A DNA stretch of 58,481 nucleotides from Thermoplasmata archaeon. GTDB taxonomy: Archaea; Thermoplasmatota; Thermoplasmata; Lutacidiplasmatales; UBA184. How positions within the stretch are numbered: the first letter of the stretch is position 1; each line of letters opens with the position of its first letter. Below the pieces are notes generated by a model that did no database searches, had not been told where the DNA came from, and saw nothing but the letters and a program-made list of their open reading frames with translations. Below are positions 3,601-35,487 of this stretch, one piece after another. A program made the translations under genes and the position numbers. The stretch is from NCBI GenBank assembly GCA_028864975.1, contig JAGWLG010000022.1:1-58481 (forward strand), in the 5' to 3' direction.

Positions 3601-4605
3601 ATGTCCGGCGAGGTTCGGCGGGTGACGGTTCAGCGTTCCGTTCCGTCCGAGACAGCGACTCCCGTAATCGACTCGACCTTCTTCGTCGGCTCGAAGATCT
3701 TGTTCACGCAAGCCACTGTGGAGTCTCCGGAGTGGGTCGTGCCGTGGGCGTACCCTAACCTGATGCTGCACTTGCGCTTGGAATCGGAGACCCTCAGGAA
3801 CAAGCTTACCTCGGAGAAGCCACGGCCCTGGGCGACCGCCCCAGTCGCCGGCGCGACTGTCAGCGGCCTAGTTGGAGTCACCTTCCAAGGCAAGAGTGGA
3901 AGGAAGTCCGAGGTTGGGGTGTTCCCCCTTGAGACACCCGCTCTCTACGGGCTTCGCCTTGCGATTCCGCTGACGCCAAGCGTTGTCCGGTTACTGGTCG
4001 AGAGTTGGACCAAAGGGAGGCTGCTACTGACTCCGAAGTCCGCGATTGTGGCGCTGAGCCCCCACCAAGGGACTGATGCCGGCATCCACCTGTGGGAGGT
4101 GCCGCTCACCGGCCAGGCGATTCTCTACGTAAAGACGGACCACAGGGAGACCCCAGAGATTGCCATAGAGGAGAGCGTACTGGAGGAGATTCAATCCAAG
4201 GTGGTTCCGGTCGTCTCCAACCAAGACGACCTGCACAAGAAACTCCAGGACGCGCGTGAGCTTCTCCTCAAAGGGAAAACGCGAGACGCGACGCTTCAGC
4301 TTCGAATCCTCATCATGAACCACCTGACGATTCCGTCTCCCCCGGTTGAGTCCGGTGGGAAGCCGGGGCCGAGAATGCTTCGGGAGGAGGTGAGGAAGAG
4401 CATCCTGAGGGGCTTCGAGGGGCATGCCCTCGAAATCCGCGAGGACAATGCCAGGTCGATCAAGGAGATTCTGGCCTCCACGCTCGATATTCTCCACCGA
4501 TACTCGAAGACTGAGGGGCTGGAATCAGTGCCCTACCCTGACATTGTGGAGTACGTCTACAACAACATTGTCGCTGTGATTCACCTCCTCGAGGCGTCTA
4601 GCTAA
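3601..4605 (+). CDS. Hypothetical protein (~334 aa) with helical C-terminal domain
   Basis: Long ORF with protein-like composition. ATTAAG at 3577-3582 lies ~24 nt before ATG 3601, consistent with a leaderless start. Start is uncertain (3574 is an alternative). Confidence 0.7.
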   Translation: MSGEVRRVTVQRSVPSETATPVIDSTFFVGSKILFTQATVESPEWVVPWAYPNLMLHLRLESETLRNKLTSEKPRPWATAPVAGATVSGLVGVTFQGKSGRKSEVGVFPLETPALYGLRLAIPLTPSVVRLLVESWTKGRLLLTPKSAIVALSPHQGTDAGIHLWEVPLTGQAILYVKTDHRETPEIAIEESVLEEIQSKVVPVVSNQDDLHKKLQDARELLLKGKTRDATLQLRILIMNHLTIPSPPVESGGKPGPRMLREEVRKSILRGFEGHALEIREDNARSIKEILASTLDILHRYSKTEGLESVPYPDIVEYVYNNIVAVIHLLEASS

Positions 4606-15779: not shown

Positions 15780-15883
15780 GCGGGTGTGGCCGAGCGGTTG
15801 AAGGCGCCGGGCCGAAGGCGGGGTAACTCGTTGGAAACCCGGTGGGTGCTTGCACCCCGAGGGTTCGAATCCCTCCGCTCGCG
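15780..15883 (+). tRNA. Type II (Ser-like body) tRNA with 19-nt intron; anticodon GAA if spliced at the canonical BHB, GGA if spliced non-canonically
   Basis: Acceptor GCGGGTG/CGCTCGC plus G73; D-arm GCCGAGCGGTTGAAGGC; anticodon stem CCGGG/CCCGG; variable arm GGGTG-CTTG-CACCC; T-arm GAGGG-TTCGAAT-CCCTC; BHB CCGA/TTGG with AGG and AAA bulges. Confidence 0.88.
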
Positions 15884-28264: not shown

Positions 28265-28571
28265 TTCGGTCGTTCCATCAGTGACCTTTGGCCTCGGGAA
28301 CCACCTTCAACCGCCGCGCGCGCCTCCCTGGGACTCGCACGACGCCTTGGCGGTCGCCCGCGAGCGATGCTGGTGGTGGGTGGTCTCGCTCTCGGCCCCC
28401 CTCCGACCGCACGAAAGCTCCCAGAGACGTGCGCAGTTTTCGCGGTGCTCTATGGAGACCCTCGTGGAGTGAGGAAATGGACGCCGCTATTCGCTCCACG
28501 ATCCCCGACGGGTCAGTCCCGGCCCGTCAGATTCAAGGCAAGTGTTGCATCCACTTCCTCGAGCTCCCTGG

Positions 28572-29222
28572 ATGTCCCCGCTCTTTCTTGGCCAACAGGG
28601 GCCCGCCTCTGGGCGAGATGACCAGCTCTCCGAGCTGAAGCGCGCTTGGCCGAAGGCCCGTTTGCTGCTTCGTCTCAGGGGTCCGAAAGCGTGCAAGACC
28701 TTCGATCAGCAGGCTTCGCTTCACGCGTCGAACGCGGTCCGCTTCCTGCGCCGTCGGGATCTTGTCCAAGCTGAGCTGGAGCTTCAGGCCGCCCTCGTAG
28801 CGGCTCAGAAGAGCGAGGGAAAGAGGGACACGTCAGCGTTGCGTTCGGTCCTGACCCGCGTCCGGCGGGGCATCTACCTGCCGGAGTACGAGGCCGCGCT
28901 GGAGGCCGCGAGCTCCGCCACCACGCGCGACGCGACCGTGTTCCATCTGAGACGGGCGCGGCGGGTCGCGGAACTCTTGGGCAACTCGGAGGATGTGAGG
29001 TGGGTGGACAGCATGATCGAGGGTCCTAGCCTGCGACCGTCCGGCTCCACGCCTACGGCCACATCTATCGCCGTAGGGTCCTCCGCCGAGGATTCTCTCG
29101 CGATCCGAAAGAGCCTCGCTGGACCTCGACCGCTCAGTATCAAGGAACAGCGTGCACAGTTCCAGCGAGTCGCGAACGAGTCTCGGGCTTACACGAGCAG
29201 GCGTCTGAAACGGCGTCGCTAG
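28572..29222 (+). CDS. Hypothetical helical protein
   Basis: Amphipathic Ala/Leu/Arg-rich helices; start uncertain. Confidence 0.5.
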   Translation: MSPLFLGQQGPASGRDDQLSELKRAWPKARLLLRLRGPKACKTFDQQASLHASNAVRFLRRRDLVQAELELQAALVAAQKSEGKRDTSALRSVLTRVRRGIYLPEYEAALEAASSATTRDATVFHLRRARRVAELLGNSEDVRWVDSMIEGPSLRPSGSTPTATSIAVGSSAEDSLAIRKSLAGPRPLSIKEQRAQFQRVANESRAYTSRRLKRRR

Positions 29223-29298
29223 CTCTACCTCGGCCCGACGAACGAAGGGTGAGTCGCATTCACCCTGGGGTCCCTCTCGCCGTCACAACACCGAGCGG

Positions 29299-31044
29299 TC
29301 ATCCCTGGCGCGTGAACCGATAGCGGTAGCCCCGCTGGAAATCGCCCTCTCGGACCACCGTCCCGCCCGGCACCTTCCATTGAGGGGGATCGGGCATCCG
29401 CTCCGGCTTCCCGTCCTCTAGATCGCTCAGCTCCGAGTCCAGGTACTCGTAGTCGGTGGAGACCTCCGGCTCGAGGTGACCTTCGGTGAGCAGCGTGCTC
29501 AGCAGGAGAAGGCCCGAAGGCCTGCCTCTCCAGCGTGTGGCGTGGAACGACGCTCGGGCCACGGGTTCGCTCACGACCACGTCCCTCAGCGTGCGATAGA
29601 CCGCGCGCTGACGGTAGTCCTTCGGCGGTGGGGGAAGGTGCTGCTTGGCCCGAGCGAGCTCACGGAGAAGGGCGCCCCAGGACTCCGAGGTGCGTTCCTG
29701 CGCTTCCCAGGGGTTGCCGCCGTCCGCCATCGCCGGAACCCCCTCGGCCCCGAGAGAGGAGGAGGCTGCCGCGAGAGCCTCGGTCGCCGGGACCCCAGGG
29801 ACCGCGGCGGGAAGGGTGAGGCGTTGAAGGTGGAGGGTGTAGGAGAGCGCAGCTCCGCTCGAGCCCGGTGGGGGCGGGCGAACGGTCACGAGCTCGCAGT
29901 CAGGGTAGCGGTTCGGATGGAGCAGCACGAAGGGCCCACGCTCCGGCCCGTCCAAGAGGAGACCCAACGCCTGGTTGATGTTCTCCACCTGTCGACGTTG
30001 GGCGAGCTCGCTCAGCCGGACGAGCGCGATGCGGGCGGCGCCGGGAACGTGAGGATGCAGGGCCAGGTCATCGAGGATCGCCTGCGCGGCCTCGGCGGCC
30101 CAGGTCTGCGCTGGAGGCCGCTCCAGATAGTGCTCCTCCTTCCTCCCCCGCCCCAGGTGCTTGAGCAGCTTCCCGGAGAGCGGAGGAGCGTCGTGCCCCC
30201 CGTGAGCGAGCGTCAAGAGCCGTCGGACCAGCCAAGGTTGCAGCCGTCCCCCCGCGGCGCGGGAGTCCGCGAAGAGCCCACCCCACCTCTCGGGCATGCC
30301 GGTGGACCACCCGGAGAGGGTCGGGCTTTCCCGATACCATTGAAGGACAAGTCCCCGGAAGAATGCGCCGGAGATCGCGAGGTCGTCCGTTTCCTGCTTG
30401 ACGCGCTCGAGCAGCGCCCGAGAGCGCTCGCGTAGCTGGACGCGGATCGCCTCCTCGTTGAAGCTCTCCCGCGAGATCTCCACGAGAGGCAGCGCGTTGA
30501 GCTCGACCAGGTCGAAGCGCTCGGCGGCGTCCATCGCGAGGAGTCGTCGCACGTCGTCGTTCTGGACCGGTCCGCCGAAGCGACGTGGGACGAGGGGGGA
30601 GGGGGGCGCGCTCGGGCGCGGGGGCGCGACCGGCGTCGTGAGGAGGGGAGGTGCGGGCGCGGGTGCGGCCGAGGGCAACAACGTCGCGCCGGCTCCCGCG
30701 ATGAGGGGAAGGTTAGAGGGAACCGTCGCGCCAGACGGGAGGGACGCCCCCGGCCCGGTCGACGTCCCCCCCGCCGACGCGGGGGTCGCTGCCATCGAGG
30801 AGGGCGGAGGTGCAAGCGCCATCGGAGGAGGCGGGGGTGGTGGCGAAGGAGGTGGGGGTGGGGTCGCGGGGAGTGCCGAAGGCGGAAGCTCGGTCACCCT
30901 CGCAGGTCGGTGCCGCTCCAGCTCCCGCAGGCGCGAGGCCTCCGACTCTCGAAGGCGGCGCTCCCGTTCCCACTTTTGCCACTGCTCCTCCCGCCGGCGT
31001 CGGCGGTCGGCCTCGAGCAAGTGGACCGCAGATTCTGGGGACAT
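29299..31044 (-). CDS. Hypothetical protein: charged coiled coil, long Pro-rich linker, globular C-terminal domain
   Basis: RRRRREEQWQKWERERRLRE, PPPPPSPPPPPPP, then ~400 aa of ordered-looking sequence; start uncertain. Confidence 0.7.
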   Translation of the reverse strand: MSPESAVHLLEADRRRRREEQWQKWERERRLRESEASRLRELERHRPARVTELPPSALPATPPPPPSPPPPPPPMALAPPPSSMAATPASAGGTSTGPGASLPSGATVPSNLPLIAGAGATLLPSAAPAPAPPLLTTPVAPPRPSAPPSPLVPRRFGGPVQNDDVRRLLAMDAAERFDLVELNALPLVEISRESFNEEAIRVQLRERSRALLERVKQETDDLAISGAFFRGLVLQWYRESPTLSGWSTGMPERWGGLFADSRAAGGRLQPWLVRRLLTLAHGGHDAPPLSGKLLKHLGRGRKEEHYLERPPAQTWAAEAAQAILDDLALHPHVPGAARIALVRLSELAQRRQVENINQALGLLLDGPERGPFVLLHPNRYPDCELVTVRPPPPGSSGAALSYTLHLQRLTLPAAVPGVPATEALAAASSSLGAEGVPAMADGGNPWEAQERTSESWGALLRELARAKQHLPPPPKDYRQRAVYRTLRDVVVSEPVARASFHATRWRGRPSGLLLLSTLLTEGHLEPEVSTDYEYLDSELSDLEDGKPERMPDPPQWKVPGGTVVREGDFQRGYRYRFTRQG

Positions 31045-31400
31045 GGAGAACGAGGGCCAACGGCGCGCCCTCAGATGCGAGAGGGCGTTCCGCGGGCTTA
31101 ACAGTTTCTGCGCGGCAGGTGACGACGCGCACTCTACGCGTTCGAAGCGCACCTCGACGCGGAAGTGGCGATGCGCCTGGATACGTTGAAATACATCGCA
31201 GGACATAGGGTCACACGAAGCACGCAGCTCGGAGAATTCTCGAGGTGCGCGTCTCTGTTCTCTATCAGGAGCGGAAGCGCGATCCCCGAGGCCCCGAGAG
31301 CGGGCCTCACCCCTGTTCTCGTCGATGAGGGTGTCGTGCGGGCCGACCGCACGTCGGCCGAGTCGCCGGGACGGTTCTGATCGATCCAGGAGGAACAACG

Positions 31401-32225
31401 ATGGACCCTGTGGAGGTCGCCATCCTCGGCGCGGTGGCGAGCGGTTGCGCGCTCTCCTTCGCCATCATCGCCTGGGCGCTCTACTCGAGGTTCCTCGTCG
31501 TCGCTCCTCCCAGCCGTGCGTTGGTGATCTTCGGGCGCTCGTCGTCCAAGCGGCAACAGAAGGACCCGCTGGGGAGGACGTCGCGGATCGGAGAGGCGAA
31601 GTTCGTGGTCGGGGGCGCCGCGTTCATCTTCCCATGGACCCACAGCTCGGCGACGCTCTCGCTCGGGACCCTCGACGTCGACGTCCCGGTGCGGGCGAAC
31701 CTCCTCTCGGCAGGGGAGGCGGTAACGCGGGTCGACCTGAGGATCGGGGCCCAGGTCAAGATCTCGAGCGACCCCGAAGGGCTGCGCTCCGCCGCGGAGA
31801 ACCTCCTCGGGAAGAGCGAGGTCGAGATCCGTGGCCTGGTCCGCAGCGTGATCGAGGGCCATGCCCACTCCGTCCTCGCCCGGATCAGCGCCTACCTGCT
31901 CGAGGCCGAACGCGAGAAGGTGGCAGCCGAGCTCCAGGTCCTGTCGGCCACCGACCTGGTCGCGATGGGCATCGTCGTCCAGTCCATGGGGATCAAGGAG
32001 ATCGTCCGTGTCCCGGTCAATGCTGGCCCAGCGCCCAGCGCGGAGCACCTCGCCGAGGCCCTCACGTCCAAGGACCTGGACCGGACCCTTTGGGAGATCT
32101 CCTCGCGGTTGCGCAAGCTGGAACAGAAGCTCTCCGAGCTCGACCGCCGGGCCCGTACGCCGGAGATCCTCCCGCTCGTCCAAGACCTGACCGGCGCCTC
32201 CTCCCGGGTAGGTGACCTCCGATGA
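31401..32225 (+). CDS. Flotillin-like SPFH domain membrane protein (short)
   Basis: N-terminal TM; ALVIFGR, GGAAFIFP, AQVKIS, AAENLLGK, VIEGH and MGIVVQSMGIKEI motifs; AGGAGG RBS. Confidence 0.85.
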   Translation: MDPVEVAILGAVASGCALSFAIIAWALYSRFLVVAPPSRALVIFGRSSSKRQQKDPLGRTSRIGEAKFVVGGAAFIFPWTHSSATLSLGTLDVDVPVRANLLSAGEAVTRVDLRIGAQVKISSDPEGLRSAAENLLGKSEVEIRGLVRSVIEGHAHSVLARISAYLLEAEREKVAAELQVLSATDLVAMGIVVQSMGIKEIVRVPVNAGPAPSAEHLAEALTSKDLDRTLWEISSRLRKLEQKLSELDRRARTPEILPLVQDLTGASSRVGDLR

Positions 32226-32521
32226 CCGGAACGAGCCCCCTGCGGATCCAGAGCGTTCGGGAAGCGGCAGCCTGCCGATCTCCGAACGCCTCCTCCCTCG
32301 CGGAGACCCCGCGGCCCCTGGCCGCGCGCGGCGCCCGCTCGCCTCCAACATCCCACGCCTGAAGGGGTCGGGTCCCCAGAGCCTCTGGGGGCACCGAAGC
32401 CCGAGATCGAGGCCGAGTTAGCCCAGCTCAGCGGAGCTGAGGTCCCGTCCCCTTCAGGCACGAACCGAACGGAGAAACCAACGAGGAGCGGAAGCTCGAA
32501 CAGAGGAGGAAAGAGAAGACC

Positions 32522-33541
32522 ATGCCAGCAGCGATACTCGGCGACCGAGCGTGCGGAAAGACGACCTTTCTGGGACTGCTCTACGCGGCCCAGGTGAAGT
32601 ACGGAACGAGGGTACTGGATTCCTTCCGGTTCCACGCTCCGCTACAGTCCCTGAGGCTCATGAGCCAGGTCTACGAAGGGATGAAGGACGCCAGATTCCC
32701 CGGAGCGACCCTGAAGGACGAGATGACGCACATCAGCTTCGTCTTCGGGTACAGGAAGGCGGTCTCCGGGCGACTCCCTATGTACATGAAAGAACGGAAC
32801 TGGGTGCATCCATTCGCGAAGCTCAACTTCGCGGCCTACGATGTCTCGGGCGAGGATGTCCAGGAGTTCATCGACAGCGGGGTCGCCGCGAGCCCGATCA
32901 TCCAGCAGCTCCTGAAGAGCCACGTGGTCGTGATCCTCGTGGACTGCTCGAAGATGACCACCGAGATCGACTCCCCGCAGTTCAAGCACATGCTGAAGTA
33001 CGACAGCGAGGTCGCCTCGCTCCTGGTCTCGCTCCAGACCTACAAGCGCCAGGAGTTCAGCCGCATGCGCTCGCAGGGGCTGAACGTCGGGGACCCGATC
33101 ATCTACCCGGCGATCGTCCTCTCGAAGTTCGACTCGATCCGCGACGATGTCCTCGTGAAGCTCGGGCTCCACCGGGGCGTACCCTCCGGGGACCAGAAGC
33201 GGAAGAGGAAGGAGTACGCGGAAGCGCTGCTCCGGGTCTTCCTTCCGCAGACGCTCTCCCAACTGAGAGGCGGGAAGGTCGCGGGGGTCAACTTCGACCA
33301 AGCGGCCTACTTCTTCAGCTGGGTGCGGACCGAGACCTCGGAGGCCGGGATGGCCCCTGTGGGACCTCCTCGCATCGTGCGGAAGGAGTTCAGCGCGGAG
33401 GGCGGAGCGGAACCCGACTTCTCCTACGACGACTACGTGGCCTTCATCGAGCACTTCCGCAACGTCGCGAACAAGGTGCCCGACGAGGTCGTGGAGCGGG
33501 AAAATGTCCAGCAGTCCCAACCCGAGCCTGTCCCCGCTTAG
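32522..33541 (+). CDS. TRAFAC-class P-loop GTPase (double-GTPase-system-like)
   Basis: G1 GDRACGKT, G3 DVSG, G4 SKFD. Confidence 0.8.
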   Translation: MPAAILGDRACGKTTFLGLLYAAQVKYGTRVLDSFRFHAPLQSLRLMSQVYEGMKDARFPGATLKDEMTHISFVFGYRKAVSGRLPMYMKERNWVHPFAKLNFAAYDVSGEDVQEFIDSGVAASPIIQQLLKSHVVVILVDCSKMTTEIDSPQFKHMLKYDSEVASLLVSLQTYKRQEFSRMRSQGLNVGDPIIYPAIVLSKFDSIRDDVLVKLGLHRGVPSGDQKRKRKEYAEALLRVFLPQTLSQLRGGKVAGVNFDQAAYFFSWVRTETSEAGMAPVGPPRIVRKEFSAEGGAEPDFSYDDYVAFIEHFRNVANKVPDEVVERENVQQSQPEPVPA

Positions 33542-34427
33542 TGCGGTGGACGCCCTTCCGGGGCTCCCCGCCCAGACCCAACCCGTTCTCCTGGCGGCCC
33601 CGGGGGTCTCCCCCGGGGTCGGGGAGGCCTCCGAGATCGGGCTCGAGCACTGGATCTACGGGGTCTCTCCCGACAAGGGGTACGGCACGCGGGCGGTCTC
33701 CTCGGGACTCAACCCCCAGCTCTACATCCGCCACCTCGCGGGGCACTTCACCCCCGTGCGGGTGGAGAAGACGACCAGCGGGTCCACAGTGATCGATGCC
33801 CGGATGATCCACCCGGCGAACGCCGCCGGGGAGCTCATCCTCTCGATCCTGGGTCGGGGAGCGGCAGACGAGTACAATCGGCCGACCATCCAGAACCACA
33901 CGGTCATCGTCCCCCAGAGCCTGCTGCGCAGCGGCCGGCTCACCTTGGCCAGCGTGGAGAAGGCCGCGGTCGACTACGACCGTCTCCATCCCACGATCTG
34001 CGGGACGATGGAGCCGCTCTTCGCGCGCATCCAGGCGCCCTCCGAGACCCTGGGAGGAGCGGTCCCGGTGATCCGACGACTGATGACCAAGGCCGCGATG
34101 GACACGTTGGTCACGCGCATCCTGGGCGACCCCCACGGGAGGACGCTCGTGCTCTGCCGAGGCGCGACGAACGAGGCGCGGAACGAGCTCCTCTACGCCA
34201 TCGTCGAGACGCTGTGCCTCGACGCGGAGGTGCCGTTGTTCCCCTGTATCAGCGACGCCCCCACGCTGAGCGCCATGAACCACTTCCGTCTGGCAACGGC
34301 TTCTCGAGGGGTCCGCGCGGACGCGAGCTGGATGCTGCTGGACGCGAGCATCGAGAAGGCCGCGCTCCCGACGCTCCGCTCGAAGGCGTTGATCTACGCC
34401 CGGGTGGCGTCGGCGTACGGGCTGTGA
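33504..34427 (+). CDS. GTPase-associated protein, GAP1-N-like
   Basis: HWIYG...GYGTRAVSSG and DEYNRPTIQNH resemble GAP1-N1/N2 motifs; overlaps the GTPase stop. Confidence 0.6.
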   Translation: MSSSPNPSLSPLSAVDALPGLPAQTQPVLLAAPGVSPGVGEASEIGLEHWIYGVSPDKGYGTRAVSSGLNPQLYIRHLAGHFTPVRVEKTTSGSTVIDARMIHPANAAGELILSILGRGAADEYNRPTIQNHTVIVPQSLLRSGRLTLASVEKAAVDYDRLHPTICGTMEPLFARIQAPSETLGGAVPVIRRLMTKAAMDTLVTRILGDPHGRTLVLCRGATNEARNELLYAIVETLCLDAEVPLFPCISDAPTLSAMNHFRLATASRGVRADASWMLLDASIEKAALPTLRSKALIYARVASAYGL

Positions 34428-34566
34428 GCCAGAACACGAAAGGACGCTAGGACCGAGGGCCTTCGACCGCCCCCGGAGGAGGGGAGACCTCCCTCTCCCC
34501 GACCCCCCGGGCCGAAGGTAGGTCGGAGGCCCTCCAAGAACTTCGACGAGCCGAGATGGGGAGACC

Positions 34567-35487
34567 ATGGCACCTGCGGTCATCCTGAGCGATCGGGCCT
34601 CCGGGACCACGACGTTCCTGGGGCTCCTTTACGCCGCCCTGGTCCGCTGGGGCTCGCAGTCGCCCGAGGGCTTCCGCGTGCACGCCTCCCACGCCTCGAT
34701 CCGCGCGCTCAAGGACATCTACGCCTCGCTGATGGACGGCCACTTTCCCCCTGACGGGGTGGAACTTCGGCGCGAGGACCTTTCCTTCGTGCTGGGGTAT
34801 GCTTCCTCCGGTCATGGCTGGCTCTCGTCGTCGGGCCGGGCGAGCGAGCTCCAGTTGCATGTCGCCTCGCTGGACACGATGGGCGAGCTTCGAGGCCGAT
34901 CCTTCGTCTGGGACCAGGGGCTGCGCGAGAAGCTCGCGAGCCAGGTCGCGGTGGTGCTCGTGGACGCGGGACGGCTGCCGGTGGAGACCGACTCGCTCTC
35001 CGACAAGGCCTACCACCCTTGGAGGAAATTCGATGCCCTGGTCGCAAGCTCGCTCGCGCTCCTCGAGACCTATCAACGAACGGACCGACTGCACCGCCGT
35101 GCGCGGCTGCATCCGATCTTCGTCCTGACGAAGTTCGATACGCTCCCGTCGGAGCTGCGGCACGGGACGCTCGGGGGCCTCGTCCCCTCCCCCCTCGCGA
35201 CGGCGGCGAGGGCGACCTGGGGGGAGGACCTCCTCGCCGGCCGACTCCCCCAGACCTGGGCGGTCCTTCAGGAGGGGGGACACGGGGTCCAGTTCGAGCG
35301 GCCCCTTTGGTTCACCAGCTGGGTGGGGACCGAGCGCGGCCCTCACGGAGAGCTGAGGGTGCGCCGGCACCAGACCGCGAGCGTCGGCGGATGGGAGCCG
35401 GACTATCCGTATGTGGAGTTCGAGTCGCTCCTGTCCCACCTTCACAAGCTCGCGAGCCGTGTAGGGGACCCGCTCCTGGCGACCTGA
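34567..35487 (+). CDS. Degenerate GTPase paralog (pseudo-GTPase)
   Basis: G1 SDRASGTT, no DxxG, G4 TKFD retained; shares TTFLGLLYAA, SWV.TE and EPD..Y with 32522-33541. Confidence 0.8.
   Translation: MAPAVILSDRASGTTTFLGLLYAALVRWGSQSPEGFRVHASHASIRALKDIYASLMDGHFPPDGVELRREDLSFVLGYASSGHGWLSSSGRASELQLHVASLDTMGELRGRSFVWDQGLREKLASQVAVVLVDAGRLPVETDSLSDKAYHPWRKFDALVASSLALLETYQRTDRLHRRARLHPIFVLTKFDTLPSELRHGTLGGLVPSPLATAARATWGEDLLAGRLPQTWAVLQEGGHGVQFERPLWFTSWVGTERGPHGELRVRRHQTASVGGWEPDYPYVEFESLLSHLHKLASRVGDPLLAT

Follow-up and report, generated by a model that had tools for sequence, protein, structure and literature searches.

A five-gene cassette with a GTPase, its P-loop-dead paralog, a GAP1-like protein and a flotillin-like protein in Thermoplasmata archaea

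Whether adjoining genes for a flotillin-like SPFH protein, two paralogous GTPases, a protein resembling the GAP1 family and a proline-rich (Pro-rich) protein make up a single system, and of what kind, is the question raised by a 58,481-nucleotide stretch of contig JAGWLG010000022.1 (assembly GCA_028864975.1), which in its entirety is called the window here. The contig belongs to a soil-type Thermoplasmata archaeon with a genome of 3.6 Mb (completeness, 89.6%; G+C content, ~68%). GTPase-centric conflict systems built from DO-GTPases and GAP1 proteins have been predicted computationally, and a few archaea possess them (Kaur, Burroughs, Iyer & Aravind 2020, eLife, PMC7159879); their Pfam families are PF19975, PF19993, PF20013, PF20014 and PF20052. 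The initial annotation of the window proposed an archaeal version of such systems and took the combination to be uncharacterized. Both proposals hold: homology to GAP1, the paired GTPases and a sister cassette of a third type identify the five genes as an undescribed variant of the predicted double-GTPase systems, and the combination remains uncharacterized in the literature searched.

A five-gene cassette around a GTPase pair and a GAP1 relative

The association of the five genes goes far beyond chance. Among 41 related genomes examined, 12 contain the GTPase pair, and a scan of species-representative genomes yielded 110 relatives and 80 loci for comparison, nearly all in Thermoplasmata-type assemblies. 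The five-gene arrangement, termed type 1, is present in about 45 Thermoplasmata species-level genomes. Every type-1 locus with full 6-kb flanks has all five genes (23 of 23), and the flanking genes recur in 1 to 6 of these 23 loci, so the neighborhood conservation called for in the initial annotation is found. In type 1, the genes for the SPFH protein, the GTPase, the GAP1-like protein and the dead paralog share a strand, and the Pro-rich gene follows them in convergent orientation; the window's genus departs from this order, with the Pro-rich gene placed divergently upstream and the cassette lodged stably between genes for HxlR and MFS proteins.

Two further types share the core of the cassette. 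Type 2 (about 30 loci) consists of a second GTPase, the GTPase, the GAP1-like protein and a Pro-rich homolog, with no SPFH gene; its second GTPase keeps GKTT in most loci and has no DxxG, and in the window's genus its Pro-rich homolog is a large integral membrane protein with an extracellular PKD domain and several transmembrane segments. The source genome itself holds a second cassette, which is of type 2 and divergently arranged (contig C119, 4131-10229); its Pro-rich homolog, with the PKD domain, has ~900 to 1000 amino acids and 5 to 7 transmembrane segments, the P-loop of its second GTPase reads GSGRTF, and a PIN_9 gene adjoins the cassette at 3686-4144. Type 3, found in a same-genus genome (contig C78, 2693-9220), brings together a vWA protein, a PP2C phosphatase, a Ser/Thr kinase and the GTPase with a fusion of a GAP1-like protein and a RuvB-like AAA+ ATPase. 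This set of parts matches the kinase-PP2C-vWA theme of GAP1-N2 systems as well as PpkA and PppA, the TagF-associated regulators of type VI secretion. The GTPase pair is retained in all cassette types, and within one genome there are two to three paralogous cassettes, their accessory parts exchanged.

Homologs of the locus proteins bear the names Thermoplasmata or Thermoplasmatota archaeon. Two sequences labeled otherwise, JACPFH010000714.1 ("Deltaproteobacteria bacterium," 2.2 kb) and DAIDCO010000007.1 ("bacterium"), carry the cassette at 67 to 88% identity to the window's GTPase and are probably misbinned archaeal DNA rather than bacterial copies. Within the family, the GTPase occurs in 49 of 151 genomes and in 23 of the 67 high-quality genomes. 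One unpublished genome is counted in this tally and in that of the Pfam-positive GAP1 family described below; no individual claim depends on it, and it was excluded from one of the alignments. Its incidence varies among genera, from 3 of 3, 8 of 9, 36 of 121 and 1 of 3 genomes to none in three more genera (0 of 1, 0 of 5 and 0 of 8).

The active GTPase of the pair has a Walker A motif of GDRACGKT (the P-loop starting at residue 7), a Walker B motif of DVSGED and a G4 motif of SKFD, and it is without a zinc ribbon or transmembrane segment. Positions G7, G12, K13, T14, D107, G110, E111, K202 and D204 are invariant in 13 relatives at 38 to 77% identity; E111 is the Walker B glutamate of the DxxGE motif of GTPase-centric systems, present and conserved here. 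The Pfam DO-GTPase2 model scores 25.8 bits on this protein against a cut-off of 27, at P-loop positions only, and 14.7 bits in the genome scan, and a PF19993 scan of the source genome gave only subthreshold matches at the level of the P-loop. Relatives of the active GTPase carry PF19993 and PF19975 matches, and DO-GTPase2 accounts for 20 of its 30 nearest Atlas feature clusters. No solved structure was matched by sequence when a profile of the active GTPase was searched.

The second GTPase of the window is 33% identical to the first (E = 1e-49), and the locus thus contains two paralogous GTPase genes. Its Walker A motif is SDRASGTT in place of GxxxxGKT, such that the P-loop lysine is lost, and all type-1 orthologs examined have T, V or L at the corresponding position. 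Among these orthologs, the G3 motif DxxG is not conserved and the G4 motif [ST]KxD is retained. The ratio of nonsynonymous to synonymous substitution rates (dN/dS) of the paralog within the genus is 0.19 to 0.41, indicating that it is under purifying selection and is maintained rather than a decaying pseudogene. The degenerate GTPase recognized in the initial annotation is a conserved feature of the cassette. What looked like an internal stop in the paralog of one same-genus genome is its natural stop codon.

The active GTPase and its partners evolve at different rates. Between the window's genus and two other genera, identity is 86 to 88% for the active GTPase, ~60% for the GAP1-like protein, ~42% for the Pro-rich protein, ~35% for the SPFH protein and ~34% for the paralog, with EF-1alpha, used for comparison, at 83 to 84%. 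Across genera more broadly, the active GTPase is 86 to 98% identical, versus 83 to 96% for EF-1alpha, and its dN/dS within the genus is 0.05 to 0.06, versus 0.2 to 0.4 for the other four cassette genes. Constraint on the active GTPase thus equals that on a core translation factor, although its cassette is patchy and relocating and its partners evolve fast. Within the genus, its synonymous rate (dS) of 0.47 to 0.61 is roughly half the 0.65 to 1.4 of the neighboring cassette genes, which hints at strong codon bias or high expression, or at a constrained nucleotide sequence.

The protein encoded between the two GTPases is a true relative of GAP1, as the predicted model, profile-profile comparison and gene position all indicate. 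Its gene lies directly downstream of that of the active GTPase, the placement described for GAP1 genes relative to DO-GTPase genes (PMC7159879). The predicted model (pLDDT, 87.5) contains a GAP1-N2-like domain (residues ~44-180) and a GAP1-M-like domain (residues ~185-300) only, and over residues ~40-307 it matches ESM-Atlas bacterial clusters with PF20013/PF20014/PF20052 at TM scores of 0.59 to 0.65. The nearest Thermoplasmatota Atlas cluster (TM score, 0.80) has PF20013 in 16% of its members. The profile-level link runs through a second archaeal family of proteins of ~560 amino acids, one member of which passes the PF20013 cut-off by itself and whose genes directly follow GTPases passing PF19975 or PF19993. 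Aligned by hhalign, the profile of the GAP1-like family and that of this Pfam-positive family match with 96.5% probability (E = 7.7e-10; 195 columns), and the motifs YG...KGY...A.S.G and DE.GR...H are common to both sides. An unrelated fold for this protein, which the initial annotation had said would undo its proposal, is not what was found.

Other searches with the same protein returned less. Pfam searches of 29 members of the GAP1-like family produced no GAP1, DENN, longin or TagF match at E values up to 1; scans of the source genome with PF20013 and PF20014 produced nothing, with PF20013 even at an E value of 10; and a profile search with the alignment of the GAP1-like family recovered only close Thermoplasmata relatives without Pfam labels, with no bridge to bacterial GAP1. 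In sister versions, the C part of GAP1 is replaced by AAA+. Other metagenomic proteins have the GAP1-like domain fused to TIR, to HerA/DUF87-type ATPases or to AAA+ ATPases with a DUF835 tail; no GTPase is visible beside the TIR- and HerA-fused genes, whose contigs are just 3.6 to 4.3 kb long.

At the level of fold, the model of the GAP1-like protein resembles TagF and the longin-DENN proteins. TagF is its best solved-structure match in Foldseek (E = 2.4e-6), and an independent structural aligner likewise returned TagF (Z = 9.0; 229 residues), together with DENND1A (Z = 8.6; 221 residues) and DENND10 (Z = 7.3; 234 residues). Longin or roadblock proteins dominate its list of structural matches, with residues 43-179 matching a Lokiarchaeal longin domain (Z = 8.3), VAMP7 (Z = 7.9) and dozens of longin/roadblock chains. 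For residues 185-307, the match to the DENN domain of folliculin has a Z score of 5.7, and RecA-like helicase domains reach similar scores there. The model can accordingly be read, as a lead and at the fold level only, as a longin-like domain followed by a DENN-core-like alpha/beta domain. Because the Z scores are in the range of common folds and there is no link at the sequence level, homology to TagF or longin-DENN proteins is a lead rather than a finding.

Partner proteins, gene calls and flanks

The SPFH protein matches Pfam Band_7 at 31.1 bits (cut-off, 23.6) over residues 34-201, the only Pfam domain among the cassette proteins. It is also the only one of six locus proteins with an NCBIfam match, a partial one to FloT (E = 6.5e-18; 65 bits versus a cut-off of 700; positions 14-183 of 477), and its nearest solved-structure sequences are flotillin-1 and flotillin-2 (E = 5.5e-11). 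It has an N-terminal hydrophobic anchor (residues 3-27, with a segment at 3-21) and a short C-terminal helix. SPFH proteins are expected to form oligomeric membrane assemblies. In the family sample, an SPFH ortholog is present in 8 of 8 genomes with a type-1 cassette and in none of the genomes without one, making the gene a dedicated component of the type-1 cassette, in line with the link to a membrane scaffold that the initial annotation had drawn.

The Pro-rich protein, a conserved fourth component of the cassette, begins with a charged helix, followed by a linker of poly-Pro/Ala and, at the C terminus, a conserved domain of ~330 amino acids in two lobes. It has 120+ homologs, all in Thermoplasmata and none with a Pfam domain, and the dN/dS of its gene is 0.24 to 0.33. 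Its linkage to the GTPase genes is kept in types 1 and 2, even after relocation across the operon. The model of the C-terminal domain (pLDDT, 79.8; pTM, 0.49) forms two lobes and has no fold match, the best Foldseek E value being 1.1 and the best Z score 4.7 over ~57 residues; winged-helix-like matches (Z = 3.3 to 3.5) were too weak to be evidence. Since the coding signal ends near 31050, the gene is taken to start at an internal Met at 31047 or 31044 and not at 31398; the public gene call starts at 31044.

GC-rich DNA contains many spurious open reading frames (ORFs), and coding frames were therefore chosen by the G+C content of third codon positions (GC3), which is high in the real genes of a GC-rich genome. 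The resulting calls (Table 1), together with the Band_7 match, the GTPase motifs and the hhalign alignment, confirm the layout first proposed for the locus, in which co-oriented genes for an SPFH protein, an intact TRAFAC GTPase, a GAP1-N-like protein and a degenerate paralog are accompanied by a divergent Pro-rich gene. The promoters of the Pro-rich and SPFH genes presumably sit in the region between them.

TABLE 1 Features of the locus, in window coordinates
Feature	Position	Strand	Coding signal
Pro-rich partner protein, ~581-582 amino acids	29299-~31047	-	GC3 0.79 over the long ORF
Divergent intergenic region between Pro-rich and SPFH genes	31048-31400	.	No frame with GC3 like that of the flanking genes
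SPFH/flotillin-like membrane protein, 274 amino acids	31401-32225	+	GC3 0.90
Active DO-GTPase-type TRAFAC GTPase, 339 amino acids	32522-33541	+	GC3 0.88
Minimal GAP1-like protein, ends at residue 307	33504-34427	+	GC3 0.91
Pseudo-GTPase paralog, 306 amino acids	34567-35487	+	GC3 0.86

The overlap of the GTPase and GAP1-like genes described in the initial annotation calls for a correction. In public gene calls, the GAP1-like gene starts at GTG 33546, 4 nucleotides (nt) past the GTPase stop, and the 38-nt overlap hence hinges on the chosen start codon; the tight coupling of the two genes holds with either start. Gaps of ~300 bp separate the SPFH gene from the GTPase gene and of ~140 bp the GAP1-like gene from the paralog. 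Scans with ARAGORN (for tRNAs) and Rfam found no match within the locus.

A further proposed component, a helical orphan encoded at 28542/28572-29222, has been dropped: its coding signal is weak (GC3, 0.74), and the ORF at 28542-29222 has no counterpart in same-genus genomes, where the HxlR gene directly adjoins the Pro-rich gene. The stretch of ~1 kb between these two genes in the window (28265-29298) is single copy in the genome and holds only this weak ORF; same-genus genomes are without it, and their gap between the HxlR and Pro-rich genes is ~70 bp.

Ordinary genes flank the cassette; they encode components of ABC transporters, a regulator of the HxlR type, an MFS transporter, a pyridoxal phosphate-dependent decarboxylase-like protein and an FGGY kinase. 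Elsewhere in the window, Rfam detects a 104-nt tRNA at 15780-15883 (42.7 bits) that ARAGORN missed, consistent with an intron-containing archaeal tRNA.

Possible roles of the cassette

The reading that we favor, tentatively, is that the locus is a self-contained five-gene cassette, a minimal archaeal variant of DO-GTPase/GAP1 systems of the GAP1-N2 branch, that mounts a threshold response to invasion or envelope insult through assembly at the membrane. Its placement in the GAP1-N2 branch follows from the parts list, the GAP1 homology and the type-3 sister cassette. In such a system, the active GTPase and its P-loop-dead paralog would constitute an asymmetric heterodimeric switch, and the GAP1-like protein, with its putative longin-like platform and DENN-core-like domain, would dock on the pair and set or read its nucleotide state. 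The fast-evolving Pro-rich protein may serve as the input or adaptor arm. The anchored SPFH protein would provide the membrane platform or the output assembly, in place of the transmembrane segments of sister cassettes, with the response proceeding via a membrane-bound assembly and not a toxic enzyme.

Physical contact within the cassette, expected by the initial annotation, was modeled for the GTPase, the paralog and the GAP1-like protein only, as a three-chain complex with the GAP1-like protein as the scored partner. The score was 0.51, versus 0.00 for the best control, amounting to "weak support" on a calibration in which 58 of 80 solved complexes attained the mark, as did 2 of 110 mismatched pairs; the custom alignments and three-chain design used here depart from that calibration. 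Only 7 of the 80 solved complexes attained the mark with a score of 0.60 or less, as did both passing mismatches. At least 90% of contacts are shared between runs, and the partner pLDDT is at least 83.

A role in conflict or stress is favored by the patchiness of the cassette, its relocation, its modular swapping and the fusions of the GAP1-like domain to TIR, HerA and AAA+. Among the signs of effectors and mobility that were looked for, patchy occurrence, changing context and swapped modules were all seen, and the SPFH protein is no more than a candidate for the effector.

Several results weigh against this reading. The cassette contains no recognizable toxic effector and no zinc ribbons; neither the FNIII-repeat protein of the N2 type nor the GASH protein of the N1 type was found in the neighborhood, although the PKD-bearing transmembrane homolog of the type-2 cassette may be an analogue. 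The three-domain architecture of GAP1 (N, M and C) is not present, as the protein ends after its M-like domain, and the DO-GTPase and GAP1-N profiles to which the initial annotation had looked for recognition gave no Pfam match reaching its cut-off on the window's own proteins. PADLOC matched none of the six locus proteins, and on 117 flanking proteins of 23 loci it made about 5 matches, which were methyltransferase-like or radical-SAM-like. No defense-island context was found, the 23 loci being flanked by metabolic and housekeeping genes, and a search of viral contigs turned up no relative. The slow evolution of the active GTPase, on a par with that of EF-1alpha, would be unusual in a defense gene. 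Finally, we infer every mechanistic and functional step, and the whole family is known from computational description alone; in the literature searched, a single paper mentions double-GTPase/GAP1 systems, which are the subject of comparative genomics only, with no experimental test.

Many of these points would be accommodated if the same machine had a cell-biological role in the assembly of membrane-domain scaffolds, in upkeep of the envelope or S-layer, in vesicle budding or in membrane-protein quality control. Such a role, which we consider a credible if less probable alternative, would be analogous to that of flotillin with dynamin-like proteins or of Rag heterodimers with longin/DENN regulators on a membrane scaffold. 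Conservation of the GTPase at the level of EF-1alpha, with a dN/dS of 0.05, is as expected of a protein with many constrained surfaces, and the same role is consistent with the lack of a toxic effector or PADLOC match, the housekeeping flanks, the stable HxlR-MFS context within the window's genus, the flotillin-like SPFH protein and the resemblance of the GAP1-like model to regulators of trafficking GTPases. The cassette is absent, however, from about two-thirds of the family genomes, many of them at least 90% complete, and is therefore dispensable. Moreover, its contexts differ across species, its partners evolve fast, and its swapped accessory modules and TIR, HerA and AAA+ fusions are hallmarks of conflict or accessory systems. 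We rank the conflict or stress reading slightly ahead of a cell-biological role at the membrane.

An improbable third arrangement would have the GAP1-like protein act in the manner of TagF rather than as a regulator of nucleotide state, restraining an SPFH or Pro-rich complex until the GTPase pair frees it. TagF is a posttranslational repressor in type VI secretion that acts beside the PpkA kinase and the PppA PP2C phosphatase (PMC5995506, PMC6082577). Such a checkpoint would agree with the standing of TagF as the best solved-structure match to the GAP1-like model and with the kinase, PP2C and vWA genes near the GTPase and GAP1 fusion of the sister cassette, but the likeness links a predicted model to a single fold family at about 8 to 11% identity, no FHA protein or secretion apparatus lies nearby, and the conserved coupling of its gene to those of two GTPases speaks for its acting directly with them. 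That the genes are unrelated neighbors forming no system is highly implausible: the two gaps within the locus could house separate promoters, but the five genes stay linked in all 23 loci despite different flanks, the SPFH gene co-occurs with the cassette, and the Pro-rich gene remains linked after relocating.

Relation to known systems

Made up of five small genes, with one of its two GTPases live and the other dead and with no effector fused to its proteins, the cassette is the simplest version seen in our analysis, and its simplicity makes it a tractable start for the biochemistry of GAP1 action on a GTPase pair. It also ties together subjects that are unlinked in the literature searched: GAP1 resembles TagF and the longin-DENN regulators; a flotillin-type scaffold is a dedicated partner of an archaeal GTPase switch; and the kinase-PP2C-vWA companions echo the TagF-associated regulators of type VI secretion. 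The EF-1alpha-like constraint on a GTPase within a patchy, relocating and fast-evolving cassette is a puzzle that neither defense nor housekeeping alone explains.

TagF and the longin-DENN proteins (DENND1A/B, DENND10, folliculin/FNIP and C9orf72/SMCR8) have a layout like that predicted for the GAP1-like protein, in which a longin/roadblock-like N-terminal domain precedes an alpha/beta domain, and they align with its model co-linearly over 221 to 234 residues. These proteins and the GAP1-like protein are alike, in addition, in their genetic tie to GTPases. Identity between them is 8 to 11%. Unlike longin-DENN proteins, the GAP1-like protein ends after the alpha/beta domain, without the C-terminal d-DENN helical domain, and unlike the partners of longin-DENN proteins, the GTPases of the cassette are not Ras-like. 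The DENN domain has been treated as a eukaryotic invention (PMC3521125), and a relationship of GAP1 to longin or DENN is absent from PMC7159879 and from a recent preprint on TagF. It is conceivable, though on the whole unlikely, that the GAP1 proteins of double-GTPase systems and TagF are true prokaryotic longin-DENN-type GTPase regulators and that the cassette is a prokaryotic counterpart of Rag/FLCN- or Rab/DENN-like membrane GTPase signaling; if so, DENN-type regulation would predate eukaryotes.

By analogy only, the logic of the cassette, an unequal GTPase pair with a longin-type regulator and a membrane platform, would be like that of the Rag GTPases with Ragulator and FLCN-FNIP and that of MglA/MglB. 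In contrast to Rag and MglA, the DO-GTPases form a TRAFAC family of their own, and the GTPases of the cassette carry no fused roadblock domain.

The SPFH protein is like the flotillins (FloT/FloA and flotillin-1/2) in its Band_7 domain, N-terminal membrane anchor and C-terminal helix. Unlike full-length flotillins, it has only 274 amino acids and is without the long C-terminal coiled-coil region; no NfeD partner was seen, and its gene is confined to genomes with the GTPase cassette.

The closest parallels are with the GAP1-N2 systems. These systems and the cassette share a pair of paralogous TRAFAC GTPases whose active copy has DxxGE in its Walker B motif, a GAP1 gene directly downstream (its N and M domains being homologous), membrane-proximal components, several paralogous systems per genome and variable accessory genes; kinase-PP2C-vWA companions, which recur in type 3, are present in 10% of GAP1-N2 neighborhoods (PMC7159879). 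Unlike GAP1-N2 systems, the cassette has a GAP1 of N and M domains only (~270 amino acids), with no GAP1-C and no fused effector; it is without the FNIII-repeat protein, and its GTPase is without the zinc ribbon or transmembrane segment. In the account of the GTPase-centric systems, Band7-like domains are mentioned for MoxR-vWA (VMAP) systems only (PMC7159879). The cassette is set apart from the GAP1-N2 systems, further, by a GTPase that is a conserved P-loop-dead copy, by a dedicated SPFH/flotillin-like gene and by a Thermoplasmata-specific Pro-rich protein.

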